This document shows positions 3,399 through 64,000 of a stretch of DNA of 64,000 nucleotides, in pieces. The translations under genes and the position numbers were made by a program. Positions within the stretch are counted from its first letter, which is position 1. The number at the start of each line of letters is the position of its first letter. Below the pieces are notes generated by a model, which was not told the origin of the DNA, made no database searches, and saw nothing but the letters and a program-made list of their open reading frames with translations. Source of the DNA: a virus; the UHGV virus genome UHGV-0038496. The stretch is one strand, 5' to 3'.

Positions 3399-5477
3399 TT
3401 ATGAAAGGTCTGGTGGTGTCACATCTTCTGTGTAGCTTTTAAGGGCTGTCTGCCCCATGTGAACAACAGTTGACTCTTTCGCACTGAATGTGATACTATC
3501 ATTCATAAGTTGAGGATAAGCCCATACGTACTGCTGTACTTCTGGGTAATGATACTCAGTGGTGCAGATATTACCACAGATCATTCTCCACAAAAATTCC
3601 TGATAGTTCTTCTCTGGGTCATAGCCATACACCGGAGCTAAATCTTTACCTGGTACAAACCCTGCGAGGTAGTGGATTTCGTTCCTGTTCCACCCCAAGG
3701 TTTTACGAGGATGTTCGATAGCTTCGAATGAACGTTCTATTTTCCCATTCATAACCCAATCATAGCATTCTGAACAGAAGAAGTCAAGTACTCCTGACTC
3801 TTTCTTGTACTCATCCGGCAGGTTAAGTTTTTCCATCACTGTACCAACAATGGTGGGATAGAAAACAAGGACTGTAACCTGAGCGCCAGGGAATGCTGCT
3901 TTAATTCCGGCAGAGATTGTTGCAATTCTCTGACCGAATTTTTTACGACAGAATGCGATGTACCTGTCATAAACACCACCAGTTAATGGTTTGTCAATGG
4001 TGCCCATGTCAAGTGCATACTCTCCTGTTTCCCTGTAGAACAGCTCTTTTGTGGTGTAGTCGTAAATACAAGGCTTGCGAGAGTCTGTATTGTACCACCA
4101 CCACGGTTCGCCAATCTGCATAATAACAGGAAGGTTTTTACTTTTCAAGATCTGAGCGAAGTTTTTAAAGACGCTCAGCAGGAATGTCATACCCCCTTCG
4201 ATACAAGGCGATAACAGGTAGCTGCAAGGTGTATACCCTGTCTTAGCGTAGCTATCGTCCCATTCGCGTTGAGTCCATTCCAGAGGACAGGCATCACTAT
4301 AAAGCTCCATGCTGACAGAGAACATTGCATCAGTGAATCCGTAACGAGTCAAATTGTAAGCAAAGTCATCATGCCATGCTTTGGCAGCTTTGTTCAGAGT
4401 ACCTGATCTGTCGATTTCCCATTTGTGAGTTGAGCTTCCCCATGAGTAATTATAATAGTGACTCATACCGCAATAGTGGTTGATTCTACCACGGTAGCCA
4501 AGTTTCTGGAGGTTGTAAAGAACACGCGCTGGGGAAACATTCCACATATCATCGTATGCAGTGCAAGCCCTTAAATCGTGACCTTCTACAGTCAGATCAT
4601 TAAGCTGCATGTATTTCCAGCCAGTGTCCGGCTCCAGCATATCAATGCGAAGTTCACAGTCAACATTAGTTGTGCGAACGTCTGTGCTGTTGGCAACATA
4701 ATCCTTAGGCATTAACGGGATCAGGATCTTGCGAACCTGACGAGGGTCAACTGCCACCAAGTAATTATTTTTGTCAACACCCAGACAATCCTCAAAATTG
4801 AGGTGAATATCTGCTGTGGTTTTATCAGCAGAAATGTTAGAAGCATAGTCCGACATACGGACGTAAACTATTGTACCATCAACAAGAGTGATAGTAATTG
4901 TGGCCTGACCTGGGGTTGTAAAGTCAAGAGCGTTGGTGAACTTGACCCTGAACCACAGCTTGGTATTACGCATCTCATAATGATCATCATATCCTACACC
5001 AAAATGGTCGTATGTGTCAACTGTTTCCCAGATTGCTCCAGACATACCCCCCATCGTACGTGAAGTCATTGTGACAATCACTGTGGAGTTGTCTGACTTG
5101 ATCGATGTACTCTCAGTCGGCTGGCAATTTGTTACCCAGTAGCGTGGGTGGAACATTCGTTCTTCTCGTGTTCCCCATTCAAGTCTGCTCAAATCTTCTC
5201 GTGAAATGATCGTGCATTTTGCTTGTTTGGTCCCAATTACCGTCCCCTGTGAGGGGGTATGGAACTGCATATAGAAGCTACGAGGCAGTCTGTTAGGTTT
5301 TTTATCCACAATATTAACAGGGATATCCACAAAAGCAGAATCCACTGGGATGATCGCCTTGCCTTCGACGTGAGTGTAATCACGCCCAGGCACAGCGGTA
5401 TCTGCCAGGGTGTTATACATAAATTCTGCCTGGAGTGTGGTGTAATCCCTGTAAGTTCTGAATACAGCGGTTGCCAT
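3399..5477 (-). CDS. Large tail/baseplate-associated structural protein
   Basis: 692 aa ORF in tail-fibre/baseplate block, Trp/Tyr-rich; function not recognisable. Confidence 0.5.
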   Translation of the reverse strand: MATAVFRTYRDYTTLQAEFMYNTLADTAVPGRDYTHVEGKAIIPVDSAFVDIPVNIVDKKPNRLPRSFYMQFHTPSQGTVIGTKQAKCTIISREDLSRLEWGTREERMFHPRYWVTNCQPTESTSIKSDNSTVIVTMTSRTMGGMSGAIWETVDTYDHFGVGYDDHYEMRNTKLWFRVKFTNALDFTTPGQATITITLVDGTIVYVRMSDYASNISADKTTADIHLNFEDCLGVDKNNYLVAVDPRQVRKILIPLMPKDYVANSTDVRTTNVDCELRIDMLEPDTGWKYMQLNDLTVEGHDLRACTAYDDMWNVSPARVLYNLQKLGYRGRINHYCGMSHYYNYSWGSSTHKWEIDRSGTLNKAAKAWHDDFAYNLTRYGFTDAMFSVSMELYSDACPLEWTQREWDDSYAKTGYTPCSYLLSPCIEGGMTFLLSVFKNFAQILKSKNLPVIMQIGEPWWWYNTDSRKPCIYDYTTKELFYRETGEYALDMGTIDKPLTGGVYDRYIAFCRKKFGQRIATISAGIKAAFPGAQVTVLVFYPTIVGTVMEKLNLPDEYKKESGVLDFFCSECYDWVMNGKIERSFEAIEHPRKTLGWNRNEIHYLAGFVPGKDLAPVYGYDPEKNYQEFLWRMICGNICTTEYHYPEVQQYVWAYPQLMNDSITFSAKESTVVHMGQTALKSYTEDVTPPDLS

Positions 5478-7786: not shown

Positions 7787-8233
7787 TTATTCTTCCTTGT
7801 TACGCAGTTTTTCAACCACCTGTGTAAGCTCTGCAAGGCTTTTCTCAAGTTCTTGCAAACTTGACACTTGTTGTTCCAGCTCAGCAATCCTGTTCTGTGC
7901 TTCAATCAGTTTAGCTTCCTGCTCTGCAATCAGTAATTGTTCTGTGCTTGGCTCTACAAGCTCTGGTTCTTCCATTTCCAGAGATAGAGGCATAATTGCA
8001 GCTTCCATTGCTTCATCAAAATAATCCACCAAAGCCCATTCTTCCAGCTCAAAATCGAAAATTGCCATCTGGCCTTCAGGAATTACATCCGGCGGGGCAA
8101 TTGTTGTGCACAGTGCAGGCAATCCGGTGTGAGGTGGAATTTGGATATCCACTTCGTTCACGAAGGCAAATGTGTCATTTGTCACATTGTAAACGTGAAC
8201 AACTTGCATTTCATCTGACATTTCAAAAGCCAT
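7787..8233 (-). CDS. Hypothetical acidic coiled-coil protein downstream of long fibre gene (possible fibre chaperone)
   Basis: Start at MAFEM with GAGGG Shine-Dalgarno; C-terminal coiled coil. Confidence 0.4.
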   Translation of the reverse strand: MAFEMSDEMQVVHVYNVTNDTFAFVNEVDIQIPPHTGLPALCTTIAPPDVIPEGQMAIFDFELEEWALVDYFDEAMEAAIMPLSLEMEEPELVEPSTEQLLIAEQEAKLIEAQNRIAELEQQVSSLQELEKSLAELTQVVEKLRNKEE

Positions 8234-8318
8234 AGTTTTAACCCTCATGATTGAAGCGTTTGTTAATCTCTGCAACAGCAGAGAGGATTAACGTTTTCAT
8301 GCAATCCTCTCTTTTCTG

Positions 8319-11300
8319 TTACGCTAAACGCACAATATAGTTAAATGCAACGTTCTTAACGGTGTTTTCCGTATTACCCGCAGCATTAACCGTGATTGTG
8401 TGGCTGTGTGCACCAATACCAACTGTATGACTGTGTGAGCCGATACCTACGGAGTGGGTGTGAGTACCATTCCCGTCGATAGATCCACTCAGTGAGTGTG
8501 TGTGGGCACCATCCCAAGAAGTTTTAGCCGCCCTCGACACAGCTGTTTTACCAGTAAACGAGCTACTGGTAAGTTTCCACAAAGTCTGTGAACCCTCAGT
8601 AGTGTAACCATCCTGGAAAGTACTAGCACCTGCACCATCCTGGACCTGACAACCGGAACGAGCGTGTTGGTGAGAACCACCAGAACCAACGCTACCCTTG
8701 AGACTGTGACCGTGCCAGCCACTTTCGCCAGTAGTTTTACTACCATAGTTGAAACCAGAAGTGGTTTTAGTACCAAGATCCACACTGTTGGAACTTGCAC
8801 CGTGGGTGTGTGATTTGATACCGTCAGCTTCGGTTGACAGAACATCACGACCAGTGGCTGGTTTACCTTTAATGGTCTGACCACGCATGTCAGGGAGAAC
8901 CCCGCTCGGATACGCAGCAGCCAGTTTAGGATAAGCAGCTTTGTCGAATCCCTGACCAGCCATGATAGCATAACCAGAAGGTGCTGTGTCAGTAGGCCAC
9001 GGTAGCGGAACACCAACCGGAACTCCTGTTTCAGCAAGGTTAACACCATCCATAGTCAGGAACTGGTTTGCTGTAACAATATTACCAGTAATGTTACCGT
9101 TTACTGAGAAATATTTATGCAAGTTATCTTCAGCTGTACCACAGTGGAATACCCAATCGGAAACACCCTGCTCGATATCGGTAGTATCTAAGATTTGGAA
9201 TTCCAAAACGTTCTTACGAGTACTTCCGTTACCCCAATAGTACAATCTGCCGTTATTAGCAGGTAAATTGGAGTTGTTGCTAGGATTGTCAGAACCACCA
9301 ACATGAATGAGCAACTCTTTATCTGTTTCGTCAACATTACGATTCGAGCGTAACTGGATAGCTTTACCAGAATCGTGCCGCCAAACTTCCCACATGTAAG
9401 TTGACCCAGTTCTATCCATGTTACCAACACGGGTATATCTGTCACCAAAACGTGTGATGTACTCCTGTACGCAGCCTTTCGGATTGTTTGCATTGTTCTG
9501 GTAAACAATCAGAGTACCAGCGTACGGTGCTGGGTAATGCCTTTCAGTTGTACAGTCAGCATCTTTTGGTTGGTGGTAAATACCCTCACGAGTACCATCG
9601 TAAGTGTTCAGGTCTGTAGCGTCAAGGCCTACACCTTTATGAGTTAAGATCCTGTTCCATGGTCTGTGATAACCAGCTTCAATGGATCTTGTATACATCT
9701 GGTCAAGGCGACCAGCCATCTGGAAAGCATAGTTTCCAGAGAATGATACAGATATACCACCAACAACCATTGAACCTTCAGGCCCGTTGGTGCTGCCAGC
9801 CATCACTTTGCACGGATTGTTAGCCCCGAACTGGTTGTTCCAGTCACCACTTGTATGGCATACAAAACCACTAGGTGAGTGGAGAGTACCGTCAGCATTA
9901 AAGTTCCAGAATTTATGAGCAGAACCTGTCATATCCCGGACAATAACCTGACCACCAGAACCTGCTGCACGGAATTCAGCCTGACCTAAGTTACCGCATT
10001 TAGAGGTGAACGTACAGTTGATTAAATCTTCTGTACCCTCGGATCTTGTCAGGAAGCCTGCGTTAGATTCAAGAGCTTTACGGGTTGTCTGGCTACCTGG
10101 GCAGATGTATTTCAGACCATTGAACCAGAGTTCTGTTTCACCCATCTCTGTTTTGTTCTGCAAGAACCATTTTTCTCTGGAACCACGATACATCCATTGG
10201 TTACAGTAGAAACCGCTTACACCACCTGTAAAGTCGAAGAGTGCACGCGTGTTGGTTATGCCGTCACCCAATAATGCCTCTTTAAGGCTGGTGATACCTG
10301 CTTTGTATACAACCCCATCGTTATTTTCCGTAGGAGTACCGGATACAAAGTCGTTAGCATAAGTACGAACATCTGTTACTACAGAACTTGCATAAACATA
10401 GACAGGGAACGCTTTTTCATGGACATAGATGGCAGCATATTGCTGATTGCCACGAGTAGGAACAAGCAACCCCAAAATGGACGCTTCATTCTGGTAAAAG
10501 TTGATAATACCGTAGGCAGAATCACCTCTGTCTGTCCAACCACCAGTGCGATACCAACATCTCAGGGTGGAACAGTTCATAGGTTCACTACCCATCGCAG
10601 ATCTGGTATGAATGAGGAGGTCTGTACCAATTGTACCGTTTACCGAAGGTGTGTTGATAATAACAGGATAATATTTATCCTCTTCCGCACCATCAGGTTT
10701 CTGAATTACGAAAGGTGTCGTGTTTACAGCAGAACCACCTGTACCAGTGCTGCTACCACCGCCTTCACCACCGGAGATACCTATGCGTTCTAACCATGCT
10801 TTAACTTCGGTATCAGATACACAGCCTGTACCACCTTTTTCTACTGGGAGTACACCTGTGATCTTATCATCGGTTAAACCAACAGAATCCATTTTACCTA
10901 AAGCACGACCACCGAGGTTAGTCCATGCAGTGGCTGGATCTTTGGCACCAGTACCACCATTGGCAATAGGAAGTGGGATAGTACCTAGACCTTTAGAAGA
11001 ATAACATCCCCAAGCGTCACCACCAGTATTTACGTACAAATACGCAGTACCTGCTTTATTACAAAGCTGAGTCTCACCACCAGTTGTCTGAGTCAGACGA
11101 TCAACCGAAAGGTTGACACGAGCATCAGCAACGGTTCTCGCACCTGTACCGCCTTGGGAGATACTCAAAGGTTGCCAGTTACCAATTTTAGGGTTAAATG
11201 CCCCCCACTGACCGTCAGCATCAACCTGTAAGTAGCAGCCGTTAGCTTGAACGTCAGTAGAACAAACGATAGTCCTTGTATCGGTGGAACGGATGAAGCG

Positions 11301-20979: not shown

Positions 20980-22092
20980 TTAGTTAGTAGGACTTGCAAA
21001 CAGGTTAATATCTTTCCAATTTTCCCATTCAAATCTTGCATCCAGCATTTCTTCGAACTGAGCAGCGTCAAACTCGATTGTAATTTTACCCTCACCAACT
21101 TCCAGAGGAATTGGAGGAATTTCGAAGGATGGTAACGGATCCAAAGGTGTACTTGGAGTTGGATTAGCTCTGTAGGTAATCGGGTTAAGCATACGGTAAT
21201 CCAGGCCAAGGAAAGATGAAATGCCGTTAACACCATCGACAAGCCACTGCGGATGTTTGGTCACGTCAGTTTCCTGGTGGTAGTTTTGCATCCAATCATC
21301 CAACATACCAGCACCTTCGTACCCCATGTAGCCCAGAGCTAATGGTCCTTTCCATTTCCACAGTCCACCAAGTAACCGTGCAAACAATCCTTTCTTAGCC
21401 ATGGCTGCTGCACCACCCGCAGCTGCACCACCTGCGGCGGCACCACCGAGAGCACCTGCAACACCTCCGGCAGCTTTAATCATACCCAGGGTTGCGGCAA
21501 CAGCTTTGACGATTCTCAGCAATTTCCATACGGCGTTAACAACAACTAAGATGGAGAAAGCATAGCCTACCCATTTAGCTTTGCTGAATGTTTCATCAAC
21601 AGTGTCACTTGTATCTTTGACTTCTTTTTTCAGCAGACCAAAGTGGTCTTTGACTTGCAACCACCAGATACGGATACTGACAATCGTGTTGTTCAATTCA
21701 CCAACAATGTCGTTCAGACCCTGGATAAATCCAGATACAAACTCACCAGCCTGCATGATCATTGGGGTGAATGTTTCTCCTGTGCGGATCAGGGTGTAAT
21801 AAAACTCGGTGAGTTCATCTGACCATGTGGTGAACAGTTTTTGTTTAGTCAATTCGATGAAAGTTTTCAAACGGTTTTCAGCCAGAACGTTAGATTTCTG
21901 CATACGTTCATAACCAGCAGCTGACGCTTCGTTCATGTACTTAGCAACGTATTTCATCATTTTGGCTGTTTTGACCTGGCCTTTCTGCATCATGTCCATG
22001 AATTGTTCCATAGACAGCTCAGACAGGTTGAAAGCCTCTTTTGTTGCTTTAATGAACGGCTCGTAAGCACCTGGCATTGCTTCAGCTACCAA
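20980..22092 (-). CDS. Tail tape measure protein, 3' exon
   Basis: 370 aa; Gly/Ala-rich hydrophobic segment AAGGVAGALGGAAAGGAAAGGAAA; frame opens only a few codons upstream (stop TAG), continuing the 22907..24142 reading frame after an intron. Confidence 0.7.
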   Translation of the reverse strand: MVAEAMPGAYEPFIKATKEAFNLSELSMEQFMDMMQKGQVKTAKMMKYVAKYMNEASAAGYERMQKSNVLAENRLKTFIELTKQKLFTTWSDELTEFYYTLIRTGETFTPMIMQAGEFVSGFIQGLNDIVGELNNTIVSIRIWWLQVKDHFGLLKKEVKDTSDTVDETFSKAKWVGYAFSILVVVNAVWKLLRIVKAVAATLGMIKAAGGVAGALGGAAAGGAAAGGAAAMAKKGLFARLLGGLWKWKGPLALGYMGYEGAGMLDDWMQNYHQETDVTKHPQWLVDGVNGISSFLGLDYRMLNPITYRANPTPSTPLDPLPSFEIPPIPLEVGEGKITIEFDAAQFEEMLDARFEWENWKDINLFASPTN

Positions 22093-22906
22093 TGTCCAGA
22101 CAGTTCGCTACGCTGTCCCGGTGTGCTAAGACACCCGCCACACATTTCTGTGTGGAGCAGACTATATCTTCTCTGGATAACCAGAGCCAACCATTTCAGA
22201 GGCGCTTGCCTCTTACACCGCTACACTCATCACGGTTAGTCGTTGAGCACATAACTTATAAATCTTTCAGCAGTTTAGACCATGCTTTCTTAGTCTTGAT
22301 TCGAACAATTGCTGATCTGCAAGCACCAAATTCTTCCATCAAATCTGTTGTATTCTCAAACCGCCTGTTATAAATTTCGATAACCTCTTCTGCTGTGAGC
22401 TTATGATTGGCATTTGACTCACCAGAGGCATCATTCAGGCCATTTGCAAAAGCATGTTTCTGATTGCCAGATCGAGTAACATACTCCAGATTATCTTTAT
22501 GGTTGTTTGCTTTATTACCGTCCTTATGGTTAACTTCCATCCCAGGTTGTGGAGGTTCACCAAGGAAAGTAAGGGCAACTATTCTGTGAACAAGATACAA
22601 CACACATTTGCCGTTTACCCGAAAGTAAACGCGTTTGTAACCATTGTGTATTGTCTGCTCAGTCAACTGCTTCCGTGTGTTTCTTCTTGTAGAGAATATT
22701 GCACCGTCCTCTCTACAGAAGTACCCATCGTGACCAGGAACTGGTCGGATTTCTAAGTTACTTCGCTGCGGATTATCCATTGTTACATCCTCCAAACTTT
22801 TTACCATACCCCGAGTAGTTACTTCGGGCCATAAACATGTTACCACATTTATTTGGTATTTGGAAGGCTTTAGGAGCTTCCCGCAATTAGGTTGGTTTTA
22901 TAACAG
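22093..22906 (-). mobile_element. Group I intron in tape measure gene (approximate boundaries)
   Basis: About 810 nt between the two TMP exons; contains HNH ORF; 3' part carries AACGACTA...GATATAGTCTG...GGCGGGTGTCTTAGCACACC core shared with the terminase and nrdD introns. Confidence 0.6.
22256..22780 (-). CDS. Intron-encoded HNH homing endonuclease
   Basis: Start at MDNPQRS with GGAGG Shine-Dalgarno; motifs RIVALTFLG and VNHKDGNKANNHKDNLE. Confidence 0.8.
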   Translation of the reverse strand: MDNPQRSNLEIRPVPGHDGYFCREDGAIFSTRRNTRKQLTEQTIHNGYKRVYFRVNGKCVLYLVHRIVALTFLGEPPQPGMEVNHKDGNKANNHKDNLEYVTRSGNQKHAFANGLNDASGESNANHKLTAEEVIEIYNRRFENTTDLMEEFGACRSAIVRIKTKKAWSKLLKDL

Positions 22907-24142
22907 CTAGTATGTCAACTGTTGTTTTAGTTCCTCAGACATTACCTGTCCTTTACCAAGCATTTGCTGTATCGCCATAATACCACGCTGATATTTTACT
23001 TCATCAGCACCATATGACGCAGCATATTGCGAATAAGCAGAGAACAGATCACGGACTTCCTGCCCTGTCATTTGGTTTTTGGCGTTTACTGCCATTTGAG
23101 AGTAGCCTTGCAGACCTGATTTCAGGTCGAAGCCTAATCTCATAGCTTCACCTTGTACGAATGCAACTTCCGAGTTAGCTTTCGTAGGATCACCCATAAC
23201 GTTGGTAAGAGCAGCACTCGCACCTTCCATCATGTGACCGGATTTGTTAACACTGACAATTGCAGAGAATGCGGTGTACGCTTTAGTCAAATCCATGACT
23301 GTTGTTCTTAATTTATTAAAAGCGGTGCTCAGAGTCATGGTTCCAGCAGCAGCATTAGCAAACCCCTTCTGCATTGCAGCGATCTGGGCGTTGAAAGTTG
23401 ACTTACCTATCAACCCTTTTGCATATTGCTGTTCAACCTGACGGTAGCCACCTAACATATCCCTAAAATTAGCCCCATAACGAGCTGTCAGACGCGTTGA
23501 CATGTTGGTAAGGTGTGTTAGCCTATCCATACCCACATTATTGCGTTTGGGCGTTCCTGAGCTGCCATTTTGCTTGTGCCATCTGTTCATTGCAGCAGTC
23601 TGGGCACGAACAAGTGCTGGGTTGGAAGCTACACCACCCATGTTGGGGTTACCTGGGATATATCTGAAGGTATTTGCTCTGGACAGAGCACGGGGTGAGA
23701 CTGGTTTGTTGGAGAAGTAGGAACTACCTAAGCCACCACTTTTCTTAGCCAGTTTGGATTGTTCCTGATAGAATTTACGCATTCTCACCAATTCAGGATC
23801 TTTGGCAGTCATCTGACCGACAACCTGTTTCCTTCTGGCGTTCTCACGTTTTTCTATCGCAGATCGTACAGCAGCTTCACGTTTAGCCTGGGATACAGCT
23901 TCCTGATGCATACGGCGTTGCTGTTGCAACTGTTTATTCTGTACCCTCTGAACAATCTGACCAGTCTTCTCCATCGATGCTTGCCAGGCTTTCAGAGGAT
24001 TCCCCTTTCCCAAAGAATCGCCCAGCTTTGTAAACTCCCTGCCTAATCCTTTAATTCTTTCAATAGCTTTTTTATAGCTATTGTTATCGATCTCAAATGT
24101 AATTCGGTTTGTGGTTGTGGCAACCACTTTGTTACCAGCCAT
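22907..24142 (-). CDS. Tail tape measure protein, 5' exon
   Basis: 411 aa; TMP-like composition (Ala/Gln-rich, GYSQMAVNA core); ORF ends where intron core begins. Confidence 0.7.
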   Translation of the reverse strand: MAGNKVVATTTNRITFEIDNNSYKKAIERIKGLGREFTKLGDSLGKGNPLKAWQASMEKTGQIVQRVQNKQLQQQRRMHQEAVSQAKREAAVRSAIEKRENARRKQVVGQMTAKDPELVRMRKFYQEQSKLAKKSGGLGSSYFSNKPVSPRALSRANTFRYIPGNPNMGGVASNPALVRAQTAAMNRWHKQNGSSGTPKRNNVGMDRLTHLTNMSTRLTARYGANFRDMLGGYRQVEQQYAKGLIGKSTFNAQIAAMQKGFANAAAGTMTLSTAFNKLRTTVMDLTKAYTAFSAIVSVNKSGHMMEGASAALTNVMGDPTKANSEVAFVQGEAMRLGFDLKSGLQGYSQMAVNAKNQMTGQEVRDLFSAYSQYAASYGADEVKYQRGIMAIQQMLGKGQVMSEELKQQLTY

Positions 24143-37216: not shown

Positions 37217-38002
37217 TTAAATCATCCTCTTATACATAGAGGGTGAAACAATCTTCGGAATAACACATGGCATCGCAACTTCCTCTTTTTCAAGGTAGTT
37301 GATTGCAGAAGCAATGGAGTCGGCCCAGTCATCTTTACGGCTAAAGGTTGACCGTTCGCCGTTGAATTTCTCCAGCTCTGTCAAAAATGCTTCCAGTGTA
37401 TCAGGGTCGAAACTTGACCTGACAAGCCGAACCATACCCTGTTGGGCAAGGTTGGCAAACGGTGAGAAACGGGTGAGTTTTGATTTGTTAGACGGCATTG
37501 GGTCTTCTTCCACCCTGAAACCTCCAGCAAGGAGTTTGCGGGATGAAGTAAGAAACTCACTCTTACCTGCCTGACCGGGGTCCACAGAGAAGACAATCAC
37601 ACAATCTTCACCATCAAACTCTGCCTGTTTCCTGATAATAACATCGCGTTCACCAGCTTTCTTGCAGAACTTACCGCTCAAGCCTGTGGAATACCTGCCA
37701 TCATCTACGTTTTCAGGACAATAGTCACCAGAGATGTAGTAGTAACCATCGCTATCCTTGCTGACTTTGATACTGGCTGTATAGTCGGGGAATTTGTTGC
37801 CAGAGGTACGTTCTGTACCAGCTTTATCCCACGCTCTTACAGAAACTGCTCCTAGGGGGACATGATCCGCATCTTTCAAGAATGTGCGACTGAAATAGTT
37901 TGCGCCTTCCGGTTTAGCGAACCAGTTACCATAGAGAAGTTGTGCTTTTTCCAGTTCTGGCAGACCTTCTAGGAATGCAAGATATTCTGGGTTATCACGC
38001 AA
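37217..38002 (-). CDS. Terminase large subunit, 3' exon (nuclease domain)
   Basis: 261 aa beginning LRDNPEYL; upstream frame closed by TGA a few codons earlier, so this is not a complete gene; intron core immediately upstream. Confidence 0.75.
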   Translation of the reverse strand: MRDNPEYLAFLEGLPELEKAQLLYGNWFAKPEGANYFSRTFLKDADHVPLGAVSVRAWDKAGTERTSGNKFPDYTASIKVSKDSDGYYYISGDYCPENVDDGRYSTGLSGKFCKKAGERDVIIRKQAEFDGEDCVIVFSVDPGQAGKSEFLTSSRKLLAGGFRVEEDPMPSNKSKLTRFSPFANLAQQGMVRLVRSSFDPDTLEAFLTELEKFNGERSTFSRKDDWADSIASAINYLEKEEVAMPCVIPKIVSPSMYKRMI

Positions 38003-39009
38003 GCAGATAGGGTTATCGTGTCCTGGTGTTCAGGGCCGGACGCAACTCCGACCCCCGTTGGTTCCATCCACCGCATCCATGCTCGGCTGCATGTTACCAT
38101 GCAGAGCAGACTATATCACGATCCTGTTTCTCACAGGACCCTTCGCTTTTCGAGCACCATCAGCTTGTGCCCTACTCCCTTTCGGGATAGTCGTTGAACT
38201 ACAATTACCAATCATAATTGTTTGAAATGTAAGTATAAGTTTTCCTTTCCTTGATACTTTTCACTGTACGGTGAGAAACCCCCCACAATCTTGCCACCGC
38301 ACCAACGGATAAGCCTTTTTGTAAATCTTCGCAGATACCAATCACCTTGTGCTCACTTATTCTGTTAGCTGAAGGTATTTCCCTAAAGTGAAACTCCGCA
38401 GAGATATCTGGGTATACTGATCCATTCTTTATACCACTTACAAGGGTTTGATTGACACCGAACATCTGACAGATATCTTTTACCCTTGCACCTTGCTCTA
38501 ATAGCCTGCATATTTCAAGGGCAGTGGCATCATCCAAATACCTGTATTTATTTACATAATCTTTTTTAAGTCCAGTTTCATGGGCGTGGTGTGTGTTTTC
38601 CTCTGGGGTTGTCCACTCAAGGTTCCATGCGGCGTTATTCAACTTATTACCGTCCAAGTGATTTACTTGGGTTTTCACGCTAGGATTATCATTATCAACA
38701 AAAACCTCAGCAACAACTCTGTGAACAAGCACTTGGAACTTTTTGCCGTCCTCACACAGGGAAACCACAGCATAGCCTGTCTTTTTATGCGTAACAGGTT
38801 GAAGGAATTTATTAGAATACAAACTATAAATTCTGCCATCATATGTCACGCAATAGTGTGGGTAACCTAAAAATCCTAAATTCTTCATTTCAAACACTCC
38901 CTACTACAGTTTCGGAAGAATAATTATAGCTGCTGATTATCTGAAAGTCAATCAGATTTTCCAGCAATTAACGAAGTTATTCGACGTGCATTACTGCACG
39001 AAGCCACTA
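38003..39009 (-). mobile_element. Group I intron C in terminase gene, carrying HNH ORF (approximate boundaries)
   Basis: 3' part (38003-38204) contains AACGACTATCC...GATATAGTCTGCTCTGCATGGTAACATGCAGCCGAGCATGGATGCGGTGGATGGAACCAACGGGGGT, about 50/51 nt identical to nrdD intron 2. Confidence 0.6.
38205..38897 (-). CDS. Intron-encoded HNH homing endonuclease (NUMOD-like N-terminus)
   Basis: 230 aa; QVLVHRVVAEVFV, VNHLDGNKLNNAAWNLEW HNH motif; C-terminal helix-turn-helix-like region. Confidence 0.8.
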   Translation of the reverse strand: MFEMKNLGFLGYPHYCVTYDGRIYSLYSNKFLQPVTHKKTGYAVVSLCEDGKKFQVLVHRVVAEVFVDNDNPSVKTQVNHLDGNKLNNAAWNLEWTTPEENTHHAHETGLKKDYVNKYRYLDDATALEICRLLEQGARVKDICQMFGVNQTLVSGIKNGSVYPDISAEFHFREIPSANRISEHKVIGICEDLQKGLSVGAVARLWGVSHRTVKSIKERKTYTYISNNYDW

Positions 39010-39327
39010 CAGATTAATGGTTGCACCAATAAAGGCGATAGAGAGGGGTTTTGGAACTATCTCAACACCTTTACCGTTAACATACGTGTACTTCTCGATC
39101 AACTCTTCTGGCGTATCGCCGAAGATAAATTCCCCATCCCTACGGATGAAATAACGCTTAACGCCACACTTACTTTCATCGGGGTAGCCTTCGTCATCAA
39201 GCCACCAACGAACAAGTTTGGCTAAATAATGTTCAGAATCGGGGTTACAGCTGATCACCATTCGCGAAGAGTATTTTGATTTCGACCTCATACGGGAAAT
39301 CAGGTAGTCGATTTGCTCCCATTCGAA
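39010..39327 (-). CDS. Terminase large subunit, internal exon (approximate boundaries)
   Basis: Frame FEWEQIDYLISRMRSKSKYSSRMVISCNPDSEHY...IVPKPLSIAFIGATI; ISCNP resembles ATPase motif III; ends just before a DNP-type motif that continues in the 3' exon. Confidence 0.55.
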
Positions 39328-39684
39328 CTGAGTCGTTTGTGTTCAGGCAAGGTCGCTAATCTTGCCCCGCCACCATGTGGCAGCTGCATGTCTCCATGCA
39401 GACCAGACTATATCTTATAAGCGGTAACAACCGCCTATCCTCCCGTTTCGGCAGTCTTAAAAGACTGTGGGTTTCCCCAGCCGCTTGGCCCTAACGCCCG
39501 TAAGCGATAGTCGTTGAGCACACATCCTATCAGGATGCTTCGCTGCGGATTATCTAAATCAACACACTATTACCATACCTTCGGTCTTTCTCCAAAGCCA
39601 ATATTATGTTACCATAATAGATTGGTGGTGTCAATAGTAAAGATTTCCCCGCAATTAGGGAGGTTTTACGAGAGCTACCAACTA
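39328..39684 (-). mobile_element. Group I intron B in terminase gene, ORF-less (approximate boundaries)
   Basis: Contains CAACGACTATCG...GATATAGTCTGGTCTGCATGGAGACATGCAGCTGCC...CCTGAACAC core elements (minus-strand sense). Confidence 0.5.
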
Positions 39685-39735
39685 ACCCTCGTCAAAGCAT
39701 ATTAAAGTATATTCCACTTTTGTCCCGCCGGATCG
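39685..39735 (-). CDS. Terminase large subunit mini-exon encoding Walker B motif (approximate boundaries)
   Basis: Minus-strand frame ...TKVEYTLICFDEG then TAG; LICFDE fits the hhhhDE Walker B consensus at the expected distance (about 100 aa) after the Walker A in the 5' exon. Confidence 0.5.
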
Positions 39736-39975
39736 CTACTCCGACGCGGTGTGCTAAGACACCCGCCACATATTACCATGTGGAACAGACTATCTCTTCC
39801 ATCCTTGGCGTGCCGTTTGGATCACCAATCGCTTGTGATTCTACTCCCCTACACTCATCGGGGATAGTCGTTACACTCGGTTTCAATTAATCCTTTAACC
39901 GTAGCTCGGTATTGTCCTTTTGTCAAGGAGTTTCACCGAATTAGGCACGAAGGGCAGGTTTGTTTACCCTTGATG
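39736..39975 (-). mobile_element. Group I intron A in terminase gene, ORF-less (approximate boundaries)
   Basis: Contains GTAACGACTATCCCC...GAGATAGTCTGTTCCACATGGTAATATGTGGCGGGTGTCTTAGCACACC core, paralogous to the tape measure intron. Confidence 0.45.
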
Positions 39976-41079
39976 ATTCAGCTTATCTTGGACGTATTCC
40001 ATGTGGCAGTACTTGATTACCGCACCATCCCTTTTCTTATTCCACTTACCTGTCTTTGCATCGTAATATGGAAAAGTAAACTTATGATCTTTCTCCCTAA
40101 ATTTTGGCCTCATATATTCAGGAAGATCCAGATACACACTTAGTGCTTTAGGCCACAGACCGCCTTCACCTTCCAGTTGTGGGGTTGTCCTACGGAACAT
40201 CACCACAGAGGTGTTTGGGTCATCTATCATCTTTAGTGGGAGAAGCTGCAAAAGAAAGGATTTACCACTGTTGCCTGTCACTGCAATGCAGTTTTCCAGT
40301 CTGGTGATAAAATAGCCTGTTGTGGTAGCAAAACAATATTTGTAACCATCTTCCGGCTCAAACTCTTCGAACGTTGCATCGTTATTAAGAGCAATCGTAC
40401 CTGCACGTTCGTTGGAGAACACAACTTTGTAACCCTTTTCGAAGAAGATCTGTGCATTGAATCCCAGAGATGATCCGAGGTATTGCAAGAAATCAGCCTG
40501 TTCTTTCGTTGGAACAACGTAGACATGCGAGTCATTACCGTTCAGGTAAATCTCATACCAGATCTGCAACAACTGGCGACGATCACAGTTATACCATTCA
40601 TCTGTGAATTTGTAATATCTTGCCTTTTCTTTCAGCTCTTCGTCAGAAATATCAAGGCCAGTACCACCCATGTTCACAAACGTGGTTTGCATACGCATTG
40701 CCAACTCATCGTTAGCATGTTGTTCGGCCACTTCACTGAAACAAAGTGTACCGTAATCTGTTCCGTCTTCTGGTACATACAGGACTGTGTGCTCGTCAGA
40801 CAATTCCTGACAAATACCATCCTGCACAACCCTGGTCAATTTATCGCATTCCAGCTTAACAAACTCTTCAGGCTGGATAAACATAGCCTTACCAGTTTCT
40901 TTATCAAACTGGAGGATATCTTGACCATCCCAGTCTGAGATTCTGATCCAACCGTTAGGTGTCATCACCTCATGTCGCATTGACAAACAACCCGCTGCCC
41001 CACCAATGATCAGGAAGTCGGCATCATTTTCCAGAATCATTTGTTGTTTACGGGAGCATGGGCCATACATTTTAGCCAT
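39964..41079 (-). CDS. Terminase large subunit, 5' exon (ATPase N-terminus with intein in P-loop)
   Basis: ORF as called (371 aa); extein sequence IIGGAAG / SGKSFLL reconstitutes Walker A GAAGSGKS once residues 31-270 are removed; the true 5' splice site lies somewhere before the in-frame stop at 39964. Confidence 0.75.
   Translation of the reverse strand: MAKMYGPCSRKQQMILENDADFLIIGGAAGCLSMRHEVMTPNGWIRISDWDGQDILQFDKETGKAMFIQPEEFVKLECDKLTRVVQDGICQELSDEHTVLYVPEDGTDYGTLCFSEVAEQHANDELAMRMQTTFVNMGGTGLDISDEELKEKARYYKFTDEWYNCDRRQLLQIWYEIYLNGNDSHVYVVPTKEQADFLQYLGSSLGFNAQIFFEKGYKVVFSNERAGTIALNNDATFEEFEPEDGYKYCFATTTGYFITRLENCIAVTGNSGKSFLLQLLPLKMIDDPNTSVVMFRRTTPQLEGEGGLWPKALSVYLDLPEYMRPKFREKDHKFTFPYYDAKTGKWNKKRDGAVIKYCHMEYVQDKLNHQG
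40270..40989 (-). mobile_element. Intein (mini-intein, about 240 aa) in terminase Walker A motif
   Basis: Begins CLSMRHEVMTPNGWIRISDW (intein block A pattern) and ends ...ENCIAVTGN followed by +1 Ser; flanking exteins form an intact P-loop. Confidence 0.7.
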
Positions 41080-42206: not shown

Positions 42207-42282
42207 TGGCACCCCGTACAGGACTCGAACCTGTAACCTATGGCTTAGAAGGCCACTGTTCTTCCATTTGAACTAACGGGGC
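42207..42282 (-). tRNA. tRNA-Arg (anticodon UCU), CCA encoded
   Basis: 76-nt cloverleaf on minus strand: acceptor GCCCCGT/ACGGGGT, D stem GTTC/GAAC, anticodon stem GTGGC/GCCAT with loop CTTCTAA, T arm ACAGG-TTCGAGT-CCTGT, discriminator G, 3' CCA. Confidence 0.85.
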
Positions 42283-60926: not shown

Positions 60927-61430
60927 GTGTTAAACGTAATCAAGAGAGATCTGACAACAGAACCTTTTGATGCTCGTAAAATAGTGGTAGCTGCACAAAA
61001 AGCCCTGGAGGCATCCGGGGCTGATGTGACAAGAGCATTTCATGCTGCACATTTTATTGCTGACGAGATTGTTTCTGAATTGGAGAGCTATGCTCAACAT
61101 GAAGAGGAGATAACAGTACCTGAAATCCACACAATGGTGGAAAACGCTTTGATGCGTTATGGTTATCTGGATGCTGCCCGTGCTTATATTGAGTACCGTA
61201 AAACCCGTGATAACAACCGTGAAGCTGCTGGTAAACTGCTGGCAGATGTTAATGGTTTCCTTGACCAATCCTGTGATGAATTCACTAAGGAGAATGCTAA
61301 CAAACCCACCAAGCATGTGCACACTCATCGTGATTTACTGGCCGGGATTCTAAGTAAGCACTTAGCTGTTACACAGATCCTACCGGAACATATTTCGAAG
61401 GCACATACTGATGGTTTTATACATGTCCAT
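60927..61430 (+). CDS. nrdD: Anaerobic ribonucleoside-triphosphate reductase NrdD, exon 1
   Basis: GTG start with GAGGAG Shine-Dalgarno; ATP-cone (VIKRDLTTEPFDARKI) then ENANKPTKHVHTHRDLLAGILSKH...GFIHVH, colinear with T4 NrdD up to the intron. Confidence 0.8.
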
Positions 61431-62392
61431 GAACAACATCGTGGCCTTACTGAGTGATCAGTATTGAATAACTCTGTTAACGCTAATTGCAAAGCGGTGT
61501 GCAGCGAAAAGCTGTGCTAACGGTTCAGAGGCAGGTGACTGCATTATGAGTAAGGGAGCCTAAACCCTTTGGACTAGGGGCAAGGTAATACCGTGCTAAG
61601 AATAGTGGCATCCTCTTAACTAGGAGGATGGTATGAATTTAGAATATGTTGATTGTGGGGATTACACAATCTATGAAGACGGTTATGTGGTTGACCATAT
61701 AGATGGCTATTGTGGTTGGGGGTACAGAAACGGTGGATACAGAGAAGCCTATGTTTACATAGGTGGAGAAAAGAGAAGAATGAAAGTTCACAGGTTAGTA
61801 GCTATGGCTTTTATTCCAAACCCTCTGAATTTGCCAGTTGTTAATCATCTGGATGGGAATAAGATGAACAACCACAGAGACAATCTTGAGTGGTGCACAC
61901 AAGGTCGTAACAATATACATGCAATTGAGACAGGATTAAGAAACGTCGCTGAATCGAACAGTAAGAGGTGGGATGACTCTGCATTCAGAGAAAGAACGGC
62001 TTCCAGAATAAGTGCGACACAAAAAGAACGCGGGACAACCGCTGGTAGGAATAATCCTCGTTTCAAGTATGAGATTGTTAAAGACGGAGATGTGTACACG
62101 GCTCCAGAGTTCTTCAATAAATTCAAAGATGTTTATGGTTTAAAACATTTGGAAAATCTGATAGGTAATTGTTGTGCATACCTCAAGCACAACTTGAAAA
62201 GAAAATTCTGGCTTAAAGTTGGAGCAGAGCCACGCTACGCCAAGAAAGAGTAAAACCTTCGGATGCCACTATTTATGTGTATCGACTATCCCGTAAGGGA
62301 GTAGGTGGGAGATGCTCCCCATCCAAAAGCAGAGGATCTCTAACTAGAGATCGTGATATAGTCATTGCCTACAGAAATGTAGGAGAATCAAG
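61431..62392 (+). mobile_element. Group I intron 1 in nrdD with HNH ORF
   Basis: 962 nt; 5' exon ends in U, intron ends in G; 3' part contains GATCGTGATATAGTC, identical to the start of the terminase intron C core; splicing restores HVH-DLDYIISPLTNCCLV. Confidence 0.65.
61633..62253 (+). CDS. Intron-encoded HNH homing endonuclease
   Basis: 206 aa; AGGAGG Shine-Dalgarno; HRLVAMAFIPNP and VNHLDGNKMNNHRDNLEW. Confidence 0.8.
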   Translation: MNLEYVDCGDYTIYEDGYVVDHIDGYCGWGYRNGGYREAYVYIGGEKRRMKVHRLVAMAFIPNPLNLPVVNHLDGNKMNNHRDNLEWCTQGRNNIHAIETGLRNVAESNSKRWDDSAFRERTASRISATQKERGTTAGRNNPRFKYEIVKDGDVYTAPEFFNKFKDVYGLKHLENLIGNCCAYLKHNLKRKFWLKVGAEPRYAKKE

Positions 62393-63055
62393 GATTTAGA
62401 TTACATAATTAGTCCATTAACGAACTGTTGTCTTGTAAATTATCCAGACATGCTGGAGCATGGATTTACAATAGGTAACGCAACCATAGGAACACCAAAT
62501 TCTATTAATGTAGCTGCAACAGTTCTTTCACAAATTTCAGCTGCTGTTTCTGGTGGGCAGTATGGTGGGCAGACGTACAGTCACATAGACCGCTACCTTG
62601 TCCCCTATGTAGAAAAAACACATAATAAAAACTTATCTTTCTGTAAAAAACACGGTTTGCCGGAAAGCGTTGCTGATGAAATGACAGAGAAAGATGTATA
62701 TGATAGTATGCAATGTTTTCTCTATCAAATCAACACCTTAACCAGCACCAACGGGCAAACTCCGTTTTTGACTATCAGTTTAGGTCTTGATACTTCTAAA
62801 TTTGGGAGGATGATCACTAAAAACTATCTTATGGTTCATAAAGGTGGCATTGGTGAAGACCATATAACCCCAGTATTCCCTAAAGTCTTGTTCTTCCTTG
62901 AAGAAGGGGTGAACATGAACCCAGGTGACCCAAATTACGATTTGAAACGCCTGGCTTTGGAATGCTCAGCAGAGCGAATTTACCCAGACTTCGTTTCTGT
63001 GCCTTTGAACAGAAAAGTGACAGGATCTACTGCTGGCGATGTTACAAGCATGGGT
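62393..63055 (+). CDS. nrdD: NrdD, exon 2
   Basis: 221 codons in frame; TNCCLV...GFTIGNATIGTPNSINVAA...QYGGQTYSH...NGQTPFLTISLG...DPNYDLKRLALECSAERIYPD colinear with T4 NrdD. Confidence 0.8.
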
Positions 63056-63833
63056 AAACTACTATTGCTCATGTAAAACCTATCTAAACGGGGGAACTCT
63101 CTACGGAGAAAATCCCGTGCTAAACGTAACAGAACTCCCGGAGAAAAGGAGTCCTGAAATGAGAAAACAAATTCGTGATTTTGAAGGGTATGAAATTGAC
63201 GAGATGGGAAATGTTTATTGCACCCGCTACGAAAAGGAAAGAATCATCCATCCGTGGGAAGAAATAAACACAGGCTACCTTCTTGTCAGGATACGCAAGA
63301 ACAAGAAAACTGTTTGCCTGAGGGTTCACAGACTTGTTGCTGAAGCGTTTTTACCGAATCCAGACAATTTGCCCTATGTTAAGCATAAGGGTGACAACAA
63401 GAAAGATAACAGCGTATACAATCTTGAGTGGGGTGCTTGCCCAGATAATACCCAGGAAGGTTACGACAACAACTGTTATACTTTTTACACAAGGTGTCAC
63501 GGTGTGAAAGCTACCAACAAACTGACTGGTGAAGTTTTCCACTTTAAGAGTCTGAGATGCTGTGCTGATACTTTAGGGGTGGATAGAAAAAGAATATCTG
63601 CTATCCTGAAGCGTGGAGCACCTAATAACTATGATTACGAGTTCTGTTACGAAATGCCGAACGACTAACCGTGATGAATGTAGCGGTGTAGGGTGCAAGC
63701 CTATGGCACTCCAAAAGATAGGCACACGAAAGTGTGAAGATATAGTCTGATCTGCATGGTGACATGCAGCCGAGCATGGATGCGGTGGATGGAACCAACG
63801 GGGGTAGTGTTGCGAGCTACTCTGAACACAATG
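63056..63833 (+). mobile_element. Group I intron 2 in nrdD with HNH ORF
   Basis: 778 nt; splicing joins ...VTSMG to CRSFLSKYN (T4 NrdD has SPMGCRSFLS at this point); 3' core about 50/51 nt identical to terminase intron C. Confidence 0.65.
63159..63668 (+). CDS. Intron-encoded HNH homing endonuclease
   Basis: 169 aa; AAGGAG Shine-Dalgarno; HRLVAEAFLPNP and VKHKGDNKKDNSVYNLEW. Confidence 0.8.
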   Translation: MRKQIRDFEGYEIDEMGNVYCTRYEKERIIHPWEEINTGYLLVRIRKNKKTVCLRVHRLVAEAFLPNPDNLPYVKHKGDNKKDNSVYNLEWGACPDNTQEGYDNNCYTFYTRCHGVKATNKLTGEVFHFKSLRCCADTLGVDRKRISAILKRGAPNNYDYEFCYEMPND

Positions 63834-64000
63834 TGTAGAAGTTTCTTGAGTAAATACAACGATCCTGTAACAGGTGAAGAGAAATATCTCGGTCGTTTCA
63901 ACTTAGGTGTGGTAAGCCTGAACCTACCTATGATTGCAGCTCGTTCCAAAGCTGAACAGGTAGATTTCTTCAAACTGCTTGACGAGTATCTTGAACTGGC
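63834..64000 (+). CDS. nrdD: NrdD, exon 3 (continues beyond window)
   Basis: CRSFLSKYNDPVTGEEKYLGRFNLGVVSLNLPMIAARS matches T4 NrdD GRNNLGVVTLNLPRIAL region. Confidence 0.75.

Follow-up and report, generated by a model that had tools for sequence, protein, structure and literature searches.

The terminase large subunit gene (terL) of the phage represented by UHGV virus genome UHGV-0038496 very probably contains two independent group I introns that flank a 32-nt exon encoding the Walker B motif of the packaging ATPase, with both introns excised and the small exon kept. The window analyzed here is a 64,000-nt stretch of this genome, in which the coding strand of the terL region is the minus strand. 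The phage is rV5-like (Vequintavirinae-like), with ~76-80% nucleotide identity to the rV5 group, and no close match was found among 50,697 GenBank phage records. A first-pass annotation, made from the letters of the window, had proposed an exon-intron-mini-exon-intron-exon organization on the basis of two group I core copies on the coding strand and a short in-frame segment (...EYTLICFDEG followed by TAG) between them; these elements are all present, and the organization agrees with intron-less and single-intron alleles in related phages, which are collinear with the predicted exons and have no indels.

Exon 1 ends ...CAA GGG U at position 39966, one base into a Leu codon, and is followed by the ORF-less intron 1 (39717..39965; 249 nt), which reads ...GGGACAAAAG at its 3' end and terminates with G39717. 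The mini-exon (39685..39716; RNA sequence UG GAA UAU ACU UUA AUA UGC UUU GAC GAG GGU) contributes 10 2/3 codons, (L)EYTLICFDEG, and includes the Walker B strand with D140 and E141. The ORF-less intron 2 (39334..39684; 351 nt) reads ...ACACAAACG at its 3' end and terminates with G39334 directly before exon 3 (39017..39333), which opens ACU CAG UUC and encodes TQFEWEQIDYLISRMRS...IGAT plus the bases AU. In-frame stop codons are found at both 5' splice sites, U^AA for intron 1 and ^UAG for intron 2. The first of these, the TAA at 39966-39964, is the stop that the first-pass annotation assigned to the 5' terminase ORF; it straddles the splice site, and exon 1 itself ends at T39966. Two other boundaries needed revision, as exon 3 starts at 39333 rather than about 39327, and the exon estimated at ~13 codons (about 39 nt) had included TKV codons that belong to the 3' tail of intron 1. 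Removal of introns 1 and 2, and of a third intron further downstream, generates a 2268-nt in-frame mRNA in which the spliced joins read NHQG-(L)EYTLICFDEG-TQFEW.

The absence of a long ORF between the two coding blocks was noted correctly, as there is no ORF of more than 63 aa on either strand in 39334-39965, and no homing-endonuclease-like ORF on the coding strand. A 37-aa ORF on the coding strand within intron 1 (39773..39886) was rejected, as it overlaps the core helices. We also rejected an interpretation of 39334-39965 as a single large intron or twintron, since its removal would delete 11 invariant residues and shift the reading frame.

The intron boundaries were compared with terL loci of related phages (given L numbers here), among them IMG/VR and ENA contigs with exons 88-95% identical to those of the window, and of cultured phages. 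Inserts are missing from both intron positions (site 1 and site 2) in L008, L009, L010, and L011, present at site 1 only in L017 and L024 (249 nt) and vB_EcoM_TH18 (245 nt), present at site 2 only in L013 (344 nt) and rV5 (319 nt), and present at both sites in the window (249 and 351 nt), L026 (249 and 919 nt), and L025 (245 and 349 nt). Alleles with 88-95% exon identity have no indels at either site besides the introns and are collinear with exon 1, the mini-exon, and exon 3, as are those of rV5 and TH18, the mini-exon being contiguous with its neighbors in the intron-less alleles; the 249 nt of intron 1 are precisely what L008, L009, and L013 lack. Because relatives carry neither intron, intron 1 only, or intron 2 only, both junctions are fixed to the nucleotide. 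Thus L008 has a single uninterrupted ORF reading ...NHQGLEYTLICFDEGTQFDWEQ, rV5 reads ...NHQGLEYTMVCFDEG-intron-TQFEWEQ with intron 2 and not intron 1 (its terL is annotated as a three-part join), and TH18 reads ...DHQG-intron-LQYTFIGFDEGTQF with intron 1 and not intron 2.

Intron 1 is 97% identical to its homologs in L017, L024, and L026 and 83% identical to that of TH18. Intron 2 is orthologous to the annotated rV5 terL intron and is 97.5% identical to intron 2 of L026, setting aside an Endonuclease_7 ORF in the latter. Intron-bearing and empty alleles also differ by synonymous changes beside the insertion points, with GGGT^TGGAA at site 1 versus GGN CTT GAG in empty alleles, and GAC GAG GGT^ at site 2 versus GAT GAA GGR; the changes in intron-bearing alleles strengthen the P1 pairing at both sites.

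With the introns and an intein-like insert in exon 1 removed, the predicted product is a 515-aa protein that aligns gap-free across both junctions with 15 uninterrupted homologs. It matches Pfam Terminase_6N with 77.6 bits (cut-off 22) over residues 24-294 (profile positions 1-211 of 215), and Terminase_6C as well, whereas the unspliced terL pieces give either no Terminase_6N match or just 18.6 bits, and the exon 1 ORF including the intein-like insert gives no match at all. Among the 16 aligned sequences Q130, G131, L132, T135, D140, E141, and G142 are invariant. LICFDE corresponds to residues 136-141 and the Walker A motif GGAAGSGKS to residues 26-34, so that Walker B lies ~107 residues after the Walker A lysine; this is close to the ~100 residues initially estimated, although the estimate holds only once the 240-aa intein-like insert is removed. 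An AlphaFold model of the ATPase domain (pLDDT 92, pTM 0.90) places LICFD in a beta-strand (residues 136-140), and the best Foldseek matches of the model are the TerL ATPase domains of P74-26, D6E, Sf6, and T4; a PDB sequence search with the spliced TerL gave no match, and only the fold search succeeded. Given the gap-free alignment, the Terminase_6N match, and the fold match, the assignment of LICFDE as Walker B, made in the first-pass annotation, is sound.

Several features indicate that both intervening sequences are group I introns. In searches with the Rfam Intron_gpI model (RF00028) on the minus strand, intron 2 is matched at 39384-39720 with 80.3 bits (E 8e-19), above the gathering score of 50 bits, and intron 1 at 39766-40028 with 44.7 bits, below that score but with an E-value of 3e-9 for the region, or 4e-8 over the whole window. 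The gathering score is a curation threshold and not a structural feature; the TH18 ortholog of intron 1 scores 34.1 bits. The core motif AACGACTATC occurs exactly once per intron (39872..39863 in intron 1 and 39515..39506 in intron 2), as does GA(G/T)ATAGTCTG (39796..39786 and 39414..39404), and third exact copies are present in terL intron 3 (AACGACTATC at 38195..38186 and GATATAGTCTG at 38117..38107). With one mismatch allowed, the two motifs have 8 and 5 matches in the window, compared with 2.8 and 1.0 expected by chance.

A P1 helix can be drawn for each intron. In intron 1, AAGGGU at the end of exon 1 (39971..39966) pairs with the guide GCCCUU (39955..39950), and in intron 2 the last eight mini-exon bases, ACGAGGGU, pair with the guide GCUCUCGU (39675..39668). 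In each helix the pair next to the 5' splice site is a U·G wobble, invariant in all four sequences compared for that intron, and each intron ends with the terminal G noted above. The P7 strands are at 39869..39864 and 39793..39788 in intron 1, and at 39512..39507 and 39411..39406 in intron 2, for which the P10 partner is 39679..39677. In the window sequence there are canonical pairs throughout P1 and P3-P9.2 of both introns, including the P3/P7 pseudoknot, and both have extra helices between P7 and P3'.

These structures are conserved among relatives. Covariation was scored for intron 1 in the window, L017, TH18, and a homolog from the Kuravirus XT18, and for intron 2 in the window, L013, rV5, and Av-05, from which the 3' part was left out as the exon 3 segment is inverted in the GenBank record. 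For intron 1, 93.9% of cells pair and there are 16 compensatory pairs, compared with 35-45% and 1-5 in slid controls; for intron 2, 94.4% of 409 cells pair and there are 19 compensatory pairs, compared with 33-42% and 1-3. The intron 2 P10 also has one compensatory change (ACU/GGU in the window and ACA/UGU in rV5).

The twin arrangement recurs in other genomes. No GenBank phage record has both introns, and the arrangement is found in no cultured phage record. However, a scan of metagenome contigs with an intron 1 P7/P7.1 pattern identified two further genomes with both. In L026 (ERZ1026772 NODE-16, 130 kb) intron 1, a 32-nt exon, and intron 2 are present, and intron 2 (7935-8853) bears a 143-aa Endonuclease_7 ORF (63 bits) in its P8 region. 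In L025 (ERZ1090862) a TH18-type intron 1 and an Av-05-type intron 2 flank a 33-nt exon, which encodes LQYTFIGFDEG. Exact patterns had given no match, either ATAGTCTGTTCCACATGG N{95,125} CCCTAATTGCGGGGAAA on IMG/VR or ATAGTCTG N{105,135} CTAATTGCGGGGAAA on JGI/ENA metagenome contigs; both were later recognized as false negatives, and neither the L025 nor the L026 locus fits the earlier exact pattern. The intron 1 core pattern CAAGCGATTGGTGATCCAAACGGCAC had 0 matches on IMG/VR. The window itself lies in a 140,706-bp metagenome contig (k141_617802; ENA ERZ27287477), and the 7.6 kb that a Logan assembly of run ERR7738938 shares with the window show no differences. As L026 and L025 derive from other samples, the twin state is no accident of assembly, and it must have originated or spread in two lineages.

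Each ribozyme would presumably recognize the end of its own 5' exon via P1 and remove itself, and both excisions together with retention of the 32-nt exon would be needed for an active packaging ATPase with its Walker B strand and catalytic Asp-Glu. We infer in vivo splicing by both ribozymes, with inclusion of the mini-exon as the main outcome. In support of this, cultured phages (rV5 and TH18) carry each of the intron families at this terL site, and the TerL proteins of these phages should be functional. Moreover, the intron 2 guide duplex has a predicted stability of -11.5 kcal/mol at its own site versus -4.1 kcal/mol at the end of exon 1. Several observations weigh against this interpretation. 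The window phage is known solely from metagenome assemblies; intron 1 falls below the Rfam gathering score, and its P8 is just 3 bp, although the same minimal P8 is seen in the homolog from the cultured phage TH18. P10 is weak in both introns (2-3 bp), and the covariation comes from four sequences per intron with the structures drawn from the window sequence. In addition, the intron 1 guide duplex is -8.3 kcal/mol with the 3' end of the mini-exon versus -7.8 kcal/mol at its own site. This guide binds its own site no better than it binds the mini-exon end, so that a degree of exon skipping or mis-splicing is plausible, and by this calculation it could be substantial.

A route in which skipping is major or regulated would have the two ribozymes act together, or intron 2 splice from a distal 5' site, namely the junction of exon 1, such that exon 1 is joined to exon 3 and a frameshifted, truncated protein without Walker B is made, throttling terminase production. 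It would fit with the AGGGU that ends both 5' exons and with the intron 1 guide pairing just described, and there are documented cases of exon skipping in Twort orf142 (23-nt exon), in the Coxiella 23S rRNA gene (34-nt exon), and in engineered tandem introns (PMC10136302), with a further report for phage SIOphi (PMC11878797). We nonetheless consider it unlikely as a principal outcome. Exon 1 (1114 nt) and exon 3 are out of frame, so skipping can yield non-functional TerL only; intron 2 clearly favors its own site, differentiated splice-site recognition favors exon inclusion (PMC10136302), and the twin state is maintained in three genomes. A decaying pseudogene in a defective phage, in which intron 1, intron 2, or both have lost the ability to splice and no TerL is produced, is very improbable. 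The phage is represented in metagenomes alone, intron 1 has its low Rfam score and minimal P8, and 60% of the gene is selfish DNA, all as might be expected of such decay; but the exons are all in frame, the catalytic residues are invariant, the helices are all intact with compensatory changes among relatives, and TH18 shares the minimal P8. Furthermore, the source contig is 140.7 kb, the ORFs around terL in the window are full-length, and the twin state is found again in two other genomes.

There is very little to favor an assembly chimera in which co-occurring intron-1-only and intron-2-only strains were merged, even though such single-intron alleles do exist in related contigs (L017 and L013) and the evidence here comes from assembled contigs. 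The introns lie 32 nt apart, far below the value of k=141 that the name of the contig (k141_617802) implies, and in de Bruijn assembly single k-mers and reads must then reach from one intron into the other. The Logan assembly, which is independent, has no differences across intron 1, the mini-exon, and ~190 nt of intron 2, and the same arrangement with different sequences is present in L026 and L025 from other ENA samples. It is scarcely credible that each piece is translated on its own and that the resulting polypeptides assemble with no RNA splicing involved, as is reported for the phage Aeh1 NrdA split by mobE. Split genes of this type exist in phages (cited in PMC7344957), but the 32-nt segment starts in codon phase 2 and contains neither a start codon nor a ribosome-binding site, exon 3 has no start codon at its 5' end, and both intervening sequences are complete group I ribozymes.

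Taking excision of both introns with retention of the mini-exon as the favored interpretation, the allelic distribution suggests how the arrangement was acquired. Sites 1 and 2 are occupied independently in related phages, so the twin state most likely derives from an intron 1 allele that gained intron 2. As the window allele is nearest to the L017 type (intron 1 only) and its intron 2 is nearest to that of L026, intron 2 probably homed into an allele already bearing intron 1, with subsequent loss of its ORF. The sequence of the window intron 2 looks like a derivative of the ORF-bearing version. Several rV5-like phages, among them APECc02, L014, and L015, have a similar ORF-bearing version of intron 2.

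The history of intron 1 may be different. Its site is offset by one nucleotide between lineages, with GGGT^TG (phase 1) in the window, L017, L024, and L026 versus GGT^TTG (phase 0) in TH18 and L025, and both terL lineages share the guide GCCCUU despite this offset. A primase/helicase intron 1 homolog in the Kuravirus XT18 follows GGGU and its guide contains GCCC, and the intron 2 site 32 nt downstream likewise ends AGGGU. Simple homing does not readily account for the one-nucleotide offset with the same guide, which is a hint that insertion is directed by the guide sequence. We suggest, tentatively and as a rather unlikely scenario, that the intron 1 family, being ORF-less, moves to new sites through reverse splicing, with integration directed by the guide sequence, and not by endonuclease-driven homing. 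Were this so, the twin-intron terL alleles would constitute natural evidence for transposition of group I introns by reverse splicing in phages, and a ready-made system for competition between two ribozymes with overlapping splice-site specificity.

The remainder of the terL locus is similarly interrupted. It spans 3,863 nt, of which 2,315 nt (60%) correspond to three group I introns and the intein-like insert. Exon 1a (40990..41079; M1..G30) ends with the first half of Walker A (GGAAG), and exon 1b (39966..40269; SGKS...NHQG and the Leu codon's first base) extends to the 5' splice site after U39966. Between them the insert (40270..40989; 240 aa) reads C...GN followed by S, splitting Walker A as GGAAG^SGKS; it is missing from rV5, and rV5-type proteins without it have GGAAGSGKS exactly restored. 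By tblastn, homologs of the insert are found in the terL genes of Av-05 (46%) and TH18 (38%) and, in unrelated phages, in genes for RtcB and primase/helicase. Searches for Hint-domain homology gave no match to Pfam at E<=1 or to PDB sequences at E<=10. From its sequence features the insert is intein-like, and protein splicing is probable.

Downstream, exon 3 is separated by intron 3 (38022..39016; 995 nt) from exon 4 (37217..38021), which encodes the Terminase_6C nuclease domain and includes the stop codon. Intron 3 gives two partial Rfam Intron_gpI matches (28.6 and 21.9 bits), is 82% identical to the rV5 intron, and contains a 230-aa HNH_3 and HTH ORF (38205..38897; Pfam HNH_3 27.9 bits and HTH_23 33.6 bits). 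Intron 3 is missing in L008, L009, L013, and L026, and exons 3 and 4 are contiguous in the last three of these. Its rV5 ortholog holds an annotated HNH homing endonuclease. L008 (IMGVR_UViG_3300045988_157310) has an ~840-nt insert (4369-5211) near the 3' end of terL, after ...FSRKDD, with a P7/P9-like motif and a 192-aa ORF without a Pfam match, and this is probably a fourth intron site in terL. In Av-05 (KM190144.1; L006 5300-5307 and L007 3400-3939) the terL exon 3 segment has the reverse orientation, with the near-palindromic P9 hairpins of introns 2 and 3 on its two sides, and the GenBank record annotates exon 3 on the opposite strand; either the record is misassembled or the intron repeats have mediated a real inversion.

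Other features of the window include a tRNA gene upstream of terL (42210-42282, minus strand; Rfam 68.3 bits) at a position matching the rV5 tRNA cluster. A tape-measure-like gene (20980-24142, minus strand) is apparently interrupted by another intron, with an HNH-like ORF (22846..22256) followed by the core motifs AACGACTAAC (22244..22235) and GATATAGTCTG (22168..22158). An NrdD-like (anaerobic ribonucleotide reductase) gene (60927-64000, plus strand) is apparently split by two inserts with HNH ORFs (61633-62253 and 63039-63668), and there is an Rfam Intron_gpI match of 34 bits at 63663-63769.

Selfish elements have thus crowded into an essential phage gene, with both ATPase signature motifs as their targets, and production of the packaging motor would depend on three RNA-splicing events and one probable protein-splicing event. 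The relatives hold every combination of introns 1 and 2, with intron 2 either with or without an Endonuclease VII-type ORF, and they constitute a natural allelic series suited to the study of intron gain, of co-conversion of flanking exon sequence on insertion, and of exon inclusion versus skipping by ribozymes with overlapping specificity across a very short exon. There is also a consequence for annotation, in that gene callers fragment this terL and drop the Walker B exon entirely.

The introns have similarities to several known systems. The T4 td intron (IA2) resembles both window introns in having additional helices between P7 and P3', and a stop codon lies immediately at its 5' splice site; it differs in its host gene and in carrying the I-TevI ORF, introns 1 and 2 of the window being ORF-less. 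The 3' part of the L025/Av-05-type intron 2 has about 84% nucleotide similarity to td introns. Within the rV5 group, terL introns were described in 2013 (Kropinski et al., ORF64ABC; PMC3606486). Like the window, rV5 has an ORF-less group I intron at the exact intron 2 site, after GAYGAGGGU (79.5% identical to the window intron 2; Rfam 84.9 bits), and an HNH-containing intron at the intron 3 site; unlike the window, it lacks both intron 1 and the intein, and its exon 1 runs on into Walker B without a break. Cultured phage TH18 and its relatives 18-1-2, 19-1-2, and 24-2-1 have the intron 1 homolog, the Walker A intein, and the HNH intron, but lack intron 2, and their intron 1 is one nucleotide upstream; the TH18 GenBank record has several split 'terminase large subunit' CDSs, and the intron is not annotated as such. 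In the relative CB7, splicing of the HNH-containing terL intron has been shown by RT-PCR (PMC7344957).

Short exons between group I introns have been described elsewhere, and although the initial view of the arrangement as very unusual in phage is a fair one, there are precedents in Twort orf142 and the Coxiella 23S rRNA gene (PMC10136302), in addition to L026 and L025. In Twort orf142, two related group I introns of subgroup IA2 enclose an exon of just 23 nt (Landthaler & Shub 1999, as described in PMC10136302 and PMC3073962); it is a tail tube gene with three introns, its short exon has no enzymatic motif, and exon skipping was shown experimentally, whereas in the window skipping is only predicted, from P1 pairing. 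The Coxiella burnetii 23S rRNA gene has a 34-nt exon between two group I introns (Hicks et al. 2011, as described in PMC10136302), but this is a bacterial rRNA gene and the introns are of different subgroups, IB2 and IA3. Among the Bastillevirinae, PMC11878797 describes terL genes split by two or three group I introns in some phages, a short exon with an intron on either side in the ribonucleotide reductase gene of phiNIT1, and exon skipping in phage SIOphi; these are phages of the Gram-positive Herelleviridae, and the insertion sites are unrelated to those in the window. What distinguishes the window terL from the known short-exon cases is the presence of a catalytic motif on the short exon, the allelic series among its relatives, and the co-occurring intein-like insert in Walker A.

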